A stretch of DNA of 64,000 nucleotides from Octopus vulgaris (taxonomy: Eukaryota), in the NCBI GenBank assembly GCA_951406725.2, contig OX597821.1:51150001-51214000 (forward strand), given 5' to 3'. The translations under genes and the position numbers were made by a program. Each line of letters starts with the position of its first letter. Positions within the stretch are counted from its first letter, which is position 1. The notes under the pieces were generated by a model. The model was not told the origin of the DNA, made no database searches, and worked only from the letters and a program-made list of their open reading frames with translations. Below, in pieces: positions 5,049 through 49,375 of this stretch.

Positions 5049-5463
5049 GGCGGCGAGCTGGCAGAAATGTTAGCACGTCGGGCAAAATGTTTAGCAACGT
5101 TTCGTCTGTCATTACGTTCTGAGTTCAAATTCCGCCGAGGTCGACTTTGCCTTTCATCCTTTCGGGGTCGATAACTTAAGTACCGGTTACGCACTGGGGT
5201 CGATATAATCGACTTAATCCGTTTGTCTGTCCTTGTTTGTCCTCTCTGTGTTTAGCCCCTTGTGGGTAGTAAAGAAATAGGTATTTCGTCTGCCGTTACG
5301 TTCTGAGTTCAAATTCCGCCGAGGTCGACTTTGCCTTTCATCCTTTCGGGGTTAATAAATTAAGTACTAGTTACGCACTGGGGTCGATATAATCGACTTA
5401 ATCCGTTTGTCTGTCCTTGTTTGACCCCTCTATGCTTAGCCCCTTGTGGGCAATCAAGAAATA
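5049..5463 (+). mobile_element. tRNA-derived SINE (family A), dimeric insertion with 18-bp TSD
   Basis: Head GGCGGCGAGCTGGCAGAA (A-box-like), GAGTTCAAATTCC (B-box), core GCCTTTCATCCTTTCGGGGTCGATAA; second unit starts at GGTATTTCGTCTG (~5280); TSD AAGGTCTGTAATAGTAGA at 5031-5048 and 5464-5481. Confidence 0.92.
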
Positions 5464-25571: not shown

Positions 25572-26179
25572 GGCGGTGAGTTGGCAGAATCGTTAGCACA
25601 CCGGGCGAAATGCTTAGCGGTTTATCGTCTGCCGCTACTTTCTGAGTTCAAATTCCGCCGAGGTCGACTTTGCATTTCATCATTTCGGGGTCGATTAAAT
25701 AAGTACCAGTTACGCACTGGGGTCGATATAAGTGACTTCATCCGTTTGTCAGTCCTTGTTTGTCCTCTCTTTGTTTAGCCACTTGTAGGTAGTAAAGAAA
25801 TAGGTATCTCGTCTACCGCTACTTTCTGTGTTCAAATTCCGCCGAGGTCGACTTTGCCGTTCATCCTTTCGGTGTCGATAAATTAAGTATCAGTTGCGCA
25901 CTAGGGTCGATCTAATCGACTTAATCCCTTTGTCCGGCCTTGTTGGTCCCCTCTATGTTTAGCCCCTTGCGGACAATAAAGAAAAAAGAAACTTTAGCAC
26001 GCTGGGCTTAGCGGTATTTCGTCTGTCAACGTTCTGAGTTCAAATTCCCCCAAGGTCGACTTTGCCTTTCATCCCTTCGGGGTCGATAAATTAAGTACCA
26101 GTTGCATACTAGGGTCGATCTAATCGACTGGCCACCTCCCCCAAATTTCGGGCATTGTACCTAGAATAGAAAATAATAT
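25572..26179 (+). mobile_element. SINE family A trimer (tail1, tail1, tail2)
   Basis: Three cores; junctions at AAAGAAATA|GGTATCTCG (~25800) and AGAAA|CTTTAGCACG (~25990). Confidence 0.92.
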
Positions 26180-48521: not shown

Positions 48522-48573
<52 letters not shown>

Positions 48574-48802
48574 CTATATCTATAATTAGATAAATACACA
48601 CACACACACGTATAAATGTATACATATATATATATATATATATATATAAAATAATAGTAATCGCCATACTAATATGGCATTCTTATAAAAATAAGAAAAA
48701 AGCTGTCCGCTTATTAGCTCCATGAAGCCATCGCCTTAAGTTAGCTATTTGATACACAAACTGTATCCATATAACCTTCGAACAAGGGAGGTCAGTCGCT
48801 CC

Positions 48803-48880
48803 ACACTACTTGACCGGCAGCTACAGACGCGTTTCGGAGTATTGCCCCTTTTCAATGCAGCGTAGCCAGCCAGTAGGTGT
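48803..48880 (-). ncRNA. Type I hammerhead ribozyme (U3-A8 variant) with extended stem I
   Basis: Core 48861->48820: GCUGCA UUGAAAA GGGG-CAAUA-CUCC GAAA CGCG UC^ UGUAGC; stem I extends through GGCUGGC/GCCGGUC and CUACU/AGUAG; predicted cut between 48826 and 48825. Confidence 0.85.
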
Positions 48881-49181
48881 CGCTTCCGACAATCTCTGTT
48901 CGATGGTTTTATTTACCTAGTTTCGGTGGAATACATCCACTTGTTTTCAATAATAGAAATATTAAAATAACTAAGTCTCTCTAAAAGAGAACAGCGGCAG
49001 CGTTCCCGGAAAATAATAGTAATCGCCATACTAATATGGCATTCTTATAAAAATAAGAAAAAAGCTGTCCGCTTATTAGCTCCATGAGGCCATCGCCTTA
49101 AGTTAGCTATTTGATACACAAACTGTATCCATATAACCTTCGAACAAGGGAGGTCAGTCGCTCCACACTACTTGACCGGCA

Positions 49182-49223
49182 GCTACAGACGCGTTTCGGA
49201 GTATTGCCCCTTTTCAATGCAGC
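49182..49223 (-). ncRNA. Type I hammerhead ribozyme, second copy
   Basis: Identical 42-nt core 362 bp away; predicted cut between 49188 and 49187; the distal 5' arm of stem I is lost at the inversion junction. Confidence 0.82.
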
Positions 49224-49338
49224 GGACAGCTTTTTTCTTATTTTTATAAGAATGCCATATTAGTATGGCGATTACTATTATTTTCCGGGAACGCTGCCGC
49301 TGTTCTCTTTTAGAGAGACTTAGTTATTTTAATATTTC

Positions 49339-49375
<37 letters not shown>

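Follow-up and report, generated by a model that had tools for sequence, protein, structure and literature searches.

The window analyzed here, 64,000 nt of the Octopus vulgaris genome (GCA_951406725.2, OX597821.1:51,150,001–51,214,000, forward strand), contains on its minus strand a hammerhead-like motif embedded in a tandemly repeated, non-coding unit (Table 1). All conserved core positions of a hammerhead (3–9, 12–15.1, 16.1, and 17) are present. Stem I comprises 6 bp (nt. 48861–48856 with 48825–48820) and is followed by core positions 3–9 (nt. 48855–48849), which read UUGAAAA, with U3 at nt. 48855 and A8 at nt. 48850. Stem II comprises 4 bp (nt. 48848–48845 with 48839–48836) and is closed by a CAAUA loop; positions G12 to A15.1 correspond to GAAA (nt. 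48835–48832) and positions U16.1 and C17 to nt. 48827–48826, placing the predicted cut between nt. 48826 and 48825, after GUC. Stem III has a single base pair in the monomer, with a palindromic CGCG loop, and 6 bp in the predicted dimer. Of the three helices surrounding the core, helix I is the open one. A sequence-only reading of the locus had noted that UUGAAAA departs from CUGANGA at positions 3 and 8 only, which we could read directly on the minus strand, and the 3-8 pair is Watson-Crick as U-A.

Table 1. Features of the hammerhead locus in the window (positions counted from the first nucleotide of the 64,000-nt stretch).
Feature	Position	Strand	Basis
Type I hammerhead motif	48820..48861	-	sequence, fold, pair counts
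Stem I extension: UAC bulge (48864-48862) facing U1.7 (48819), with more helices beyond	48790..48890	-	MFE, both-side changes
Full 362-nt monomer, 3' end into (TA)n tract	48648..49009	-	sequence comparison
5'-cut upstream tandem copy (215 nt, unit 148-362), with second hammerhead at 49182-49223	49010..49224	-	sequence comparison
Inverted copy, cut at its 5' end, made up of unit 299-362 and a tail of 60 nt (unit 1-60); runs into (TA)n	49221..49344	+	inverted repeat
(TA)n-rich microsatellite, left part of insertion target	48537..48648	.	sequence
(TA)n microsatellite, right part of insertion target	49342..49372	.	sequence
Most conserved segment of the unit, past the second 3'-end site	48906..48959	-	column variability among subfamilies

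The predicted fold extends beyond the minimal motif, with the UAC bulge and outer stem I present in the minimum free energy (MFE) folds of both nt. 48806–48876 and nt. 48790–48890. The fold of the 71-nt stretch had a z-score of -3.02 (1/200 shuffles equally good) and that of the 101-nt stretch a z-score of -4.43 (0/200), while the 42-nt motif alone folds in an ordinary manner (z -0.82, 38/200 shuffles equally good). Exact family cores occur 136 times in the genome against none with a reversed-pattern control, indicating that the motif is not a chance occurrence. No hammerhead was matched by Rfam in the window, in a subfamily tandem, or in a canonical-core family described below (family B); given that family B was missed too, this blank is not caused by the U3-A8 swap. 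A single Rfam match to RT-2 was rejected as chance (21 bits, the gathering score being 40). On its sequence and predicted pairing, the motif at nt. 48820–48861 can be classed as a type I hammerhead that carries U3-A8 in its core, and for which cleavage is predicted.

The 362-nt unit has a GC content of 41% and is non-coding, its longest stop-free stretch being 55 a.a. Folded as a circle, the monomer reaches a z-score of -7.3, with none of 100 shuffles as low. The hammerhead in the 5'-cut upstream copy lacks the bulge and outer stem I, the inverted repeat spans 124 nt at 100% identity, both outer ends of the insertion run into (TA)n, and no host ORF was seen within ~6 kb of it. Elsewhere in the window, two dimers of an unrelated 184-bp repeat unit were noted (5100–5463 and 25625–25969).

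Searching the genome (2.8 Gb, 227 contigs) at the DNA level, we identified at least 169 matches to the unit (40 of 1346 candidates scored), many of them in head-to-tail arrays with a 362-bp period and ~99% identity; we refer to these copies as family A. The first 30 loci represent 18 distinct insertion sites, and an inverted piece was read at 16 of these 18. Insertions end in 3' at two sites, 65 nt apart and ~175 and ~240 nt beyond the cut site rather than at the cut. At site 1, 70 of the 91 occurrences continue into the unit, two more do so with mutations, and the remaining 19 run into (TA)n, meaning that all 19 true ends lie at TA repeats. At site 2 (105 occurrences), 74 continue, 24 run into long and four into short TA runs, and three do neither, leaving 28 of 31 true ends at TA repeats. 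In two of four contig sets, the kind of which is uncertain, a 392-nt contig wraps the 362-nt unit, fitting either a tandem array or a circle, and no change is listed there at nt. 48855 or 48850.

Five subfamilies of the unit, 83–99% alike, differ at 66 of 362 columns. In the segment behind the second 3'-end site, only 2 of 54 columns vary among the same five (p 0.002), and this segment, present in part also at nt. 49284–49344 on the plus strand, may be a protein-binding or priming signal. It contains a hairpin and an imperfect hammerhead-like string with the UUGAAAA heptamer, in which extra bases precede the core and stem II and stem I is a weak A-U helix; given these extra bases and the weak stem I, cleavage of this second string is doubtful.

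Taken as a set, the tandem layout, the inverted 5' pieces, the pair of 3' ends, and the insertion into (TA)n point to a non-LTR retrozyme, likely moved by Penelope-like elements, which have been described as having partly tandem copies, 5'-cut copies in inverted orientation, a tail, and (TA)n, AT-rich or microsatellite targets (PMC8557442). The family displays the corresponding set for a non-autonomous Penelope-like element, namely partial tandems, an inverted 5'-cut copy, a tail, and microsatellite targets, as well as that of retrozymes, with tandem monomers within 150–450 bp, one type I hammerhead per unit, and GC below 50%.

To follow the core through family A, we used a search frame with both loops and the remaining core positions fixed and with positions 3, 7, and 8 left free. 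The frame matched 1435 times in the genome, and reversed-pattern controls gave no match in any of the four frame searches. U3-A8 was found in 1426 of the 1435, with position 7 being A in 1167 of these and another base in 259. The pair was broken in nine (four C3-A8, four A3-A8, and one U3-G8), and the A3 matches proved on alignment to be cut junctions or one-base deletions. C3-G8 was absent from all 1435 frame matches. Nine heterogeneous C3-G8 motifs with a similar start of stem I were unmatched by the family A profile. Another subfamily, in which loop 2 has 6 nt, carries U3-A8 in 33 of 35 cases; it was also seen to occur in two stem III forms, a 3-nt duplication at the cut site apart (L115, L117, L121, and others of L113–L142).

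None of 12 core positions varies among the five subfamily majorities (p ~0.09), a count that is partly circular because the search patterns fixed the other core positions, and position 7 is A, C, or U depending on the subfamily. In the helices, 97% of cells are paired (14 distinct rows) against 27–53% with slid partners, the corresponding shuffle test being inflated by related rows. Among 21 pairs compared across subfamilies, two, both in the stem I extension, changed on both sides and three on one side with pairing kept, and some stem II variants are mismatched. The uniformity of the core inside this young family is mostly attributable to common descent.

A canonical-core family in the same genome provides the wider comparison. 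The CUGANGA pattern had 48 genome matches (2 with the control), of which 37 come from a 359-nt tandem family, family B (L031–L060, e.g., G000:C1:20002278–20004542), and none from family A, bearing out the prediction that CUGANGA-based searches would miss the latter. C3-G8 is present in 40 of 40 family B matches. Over the ribozyme, B aligns to A without gaps and has the same helix layout, including a single unpaired U1.7, a 3-nt bulge, and a loop 2 ending in A. The known contact is between U1.7 and the last A of loop 2 (PMC11875169), and the conservation of these three elements in both families agrees with the earlier suggestion that the bulged stem I lies where a contact with loop 2 would be possible. 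Between the families, both partners changed in 8 of 17 pairs, the 3-8 pair included (7 distinct rows), although most of these changes trace to a single event, the divergence of the two families.

Outside the ribozyme, A and B are ~50% identical and collinear, and for each of three block sizes their global alignment score is higher than in all 300 block shuffles (z 4.9–5.8). Local alignment was not above shuffles and found nothing outside the ribozyme, and the family A profile search returned no family B match. Family B likewise shows inverted pieces and TA flanks, and its insertions stop at two 3' positions that correspond to those of family A. The two are likely homologous, as distant sister families. 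Scattered and diverged C3-G8 hammerhead-like motifs were also seen (L177–L185, L057, L058), several with a CAUG stem III loop; these are probably an older, decayed family.

Also present in the genome is an autonomous family of Penelope-like elements, matched at least 151 times, whose stop-free frames span 813–850 a.a. and include an RT domain (L173–L176, e.g., G000:C3:86385000–86390000, and L143–L172). By comparison of its CxxC linker with the published description, it probably belongs to the Neptune clade (PMC8557442). Of 30 loci chosen solely on the protein, a hammerhead could be read past the ORF in 29, each of which carries U3-A8. This hammerhead is minimal, lies ~110–130 nt past the ORF, and has a 2-bp stem II, in which a change from C-G to U-A was noted between subfamilies. 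Its copies terminate in (TA)n, in some cases with an inverted 5' repeat. We regard the element as a candidate driver of family A.

No significant sequence was shared between the autonomous family and the 362-nt unit in the 30 loci, and among 12 further Penelope-like 3' regions none scored above shuffles against the unit, except L133, which runs into a family A copy. A mixed dimer of family A and the autonomous element was considered and rejected, given the stem III palindrome of the latter is CCGG, not CGCG. The stem III palindrome of family B is the same CCGG, and mixed dimers with the autonomous element would be possible there in principle. A fragment of the autonomous family, with a GIY-YIG-like end, adjoins one family A copy, and three different Penelope-like fragments directly adjoin such copies (L067, L113, L116). 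Retrozyme copies were further seen to abut fragments of different Penelope-like families via short TA runs (L067, L113, L116, L133, L166). We attribute this adjacency to shared, nested (TA)n targets. The 3' end of another Penelope-like family (L113:2660–2760) has a minimal hammerhead with the core CCGAAGA, a U4C variant, and a long stem II that ends in a hairpin resembling the hairpin of the unit's conserved segment.

Taken together, we consider it probable that a U3-A8 hammerhead is fixed in a 362-nt non-coding retrozyme, which would self-cleave as a dimer and whose monomers would be copied into (TA)n by a Penelope-like protein. Transcription through a tandem would yield a transcript with two motifs 362 nt apart, which could pair via the self-complementary ACGCGU to form stem III, be cleaved after GUC, and release one monomer. 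Computed energies are a cost of 5.6 kcal/mol for stem III in the monomer and -7.5 kcal/mol for the ACGCGU self-duplex, and a dimer route has been described for such ribozymes (PMC4209133). Monomers would likely circularize, by analogy with coral and mussel retrozymes (PMC7229834), and an RT and GIY-YIG protein would be supplied in trans; copying of retrozymes by an element-encoded protein, with retrozymes as non-autonomous derivatives, has been proposed (Li et al. 2026, 10.64898/2026.07.22.740005). Copying would begin at one of two internal sites, leaving the tail, an explanation advanced for Penelope-like tails elsewhere (PMC11167929). The swap from C3-G8 to U3-A8 likely took place once, in the ancestor of family A, as two transitions towards A/U, and would have been retained because the 3-8 pair was restored. 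In a type III hammerhead, C3G/G8C was the only swap reported to rescue activity and the other motif double mutants were low (PMC9901934), and cleavage by U3-A8 could accordingly be slow in this family.

Selection for the hammerhead fold is likely and, on the sequences compared, well supported, resting on one change between families together with helix covariation. The proposal in the sequence-only reading that the double change itself points to selection is supported in part, by the covariation of the fold and by the pair being kept between A and B, but receives little from the uniformity within family A alone. Alternatively, the fold could be kept as a structural or protein-binding signal, with cleavage weak, protein-dependent or dispensable and U3-A8 a tolerated, degraded state. 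Penelope-like hammerheads are reported to cleave poorly in vitro (PMC4209133). In an anole Penelope-like element, cleavage needs the protein of the element, hammerhead mutants were reported to have no effect on insertion in vitro, and no reads were reported to end at the cut site (PMC11167929), which would make the ribozyme protein-dependent and dispensable for insertion under those conditions. The one mutational scan cited above did not single out U3-A8 as a rescuing change (PMC9901934), and the octopus insertions end ~175 and 240 nt past the cut site. However, the 3-8 pair exists in the active fold only, yet it is kept as U-A or C-G in each family, no subfamily majority has a 3-8 mismatch, and both the canonical helix sizes and the positions of the tertiary contact are kept. 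We regard this alternative as unlikely.

An account without function, in which both changes were fixed by C-to-T/G-to-A bias in one founder and then spread by neutral, satellite-like amplification of a dead relic, is highly improbable. Both changes are indeed transitions towards A/T in an AT-rich genome, and the invariance of the 12 core positions taken alone is weak evidence against it. Such an account would leave unexplained the pair-keeping helix changes, the fact that position 7 changed twice while 3 and 8 stayed fixed, and the occurrence of this swap in another element to which no sequence similarity could be detected; moreover, instead of forming one array, the copies are scattered and have ends of retroelement type. 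A more elaborate version of the preferred reading, that of a self-cleaving retrozyme moved by a Penelope-like protein, would take U3-A8 as a tuning shared by the retroelement ribozymes of this lineage, with cleavage conditional on the dimer or the Penelope-like protein and the swap arising independently in the retrozyme and its autonomous driver; family B would then be a matched control for a two-step fitness valley, and the second segment may be a protein-assisted cut or priming signal. We regard this as quite doubtful.

The implied novelty of the U3-A8 core does not hold. Natural covariation from C3-G8 to U3-A8 was published for several hammerheads in 2011, with such pairs cited there as active in vitro (Perreault et al. 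2011, PMC3088659), and U3-A8 was reported in Penelope-like elements of Schistosoma mansoni in 2014, with ~1,300 hits to a U3-A8 descriptor (Cervera and de la Peña 2014, PMC4209133). In the part of the literature on hammerheads and cephalopods that was covered, we found no description of the 362-nt family, although supplements or Lünse et al. 2017 could contain one. From the sequence comparisons, the family appears to be a non-LTR retrozyme not described before, with a core variant that is already known. Its interest lies in that one genome offers a comparison between more than 1,400 U3-A8 copies, a C3-G8 family of likely common origin, and an autonomous U3-A8 Penelope-like family, with the U3-A8 family recently active and of canonical architecture. 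Penelope-type insertion marks on an invertebrate retrozyme lend support to the idea, already proposed, that Penelope-like elements mobilize the retrozymes of animals. Surveys with CUGANGA fixed would undercount hammerheads here by about thirty-fold (48 against 1426, from comparable, though not identical, search frames).

The closest known systems are the metazoan non-LTR retrozymes (Cervera and de la Peña 2020, PMC7229834), described as non-coding tandem monomers of 150–450 bp with GC below 50%, one type I hammerhead per unit, and a highly self-paired predicted circle, all of which apply to the octopus unit; at 362 nt, it is also near the mussel retrozyme repeats (~350–390 bp). A U3-A8 core is not noted among the features given in that account, whereas the octopus family has it. 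Inverted 5' pieces and a tail are further regular features of the octopus family, as is its targeting of (TA)n, and the word 'inverted' is absent from the main text of that paper. The metazoan retrozymes are known as RNA and the octopus family from genome sequence. The Cercyon elements of S. mansoni share U3-A8, type I topology, and a dimer-type stem III, but their hammerheads are described as minimal, heterogeneous, and mostly single, with a long stem II and a short stem I (PMC4209133), in contrast to the canonical helix sizes, bulged stem I, and homogeneous non-coding tandem unit seen here. Non-autonomous Penelope-like elements are alike in their partial tandems, inverted 5'-cut copy, tail, and microsatellite targets, with a tail described as 30–40 nt against ~65 nt in the octopus family (Craig et al. 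2021, PMC8557442), and the octopus unit has no sequence likeness to the autonomous elements examined. Compared to the examples given by Perreault et al. (2011), the swap is here fixed in a high-copy animal retroelement beside a likely C3-G8 sister family.
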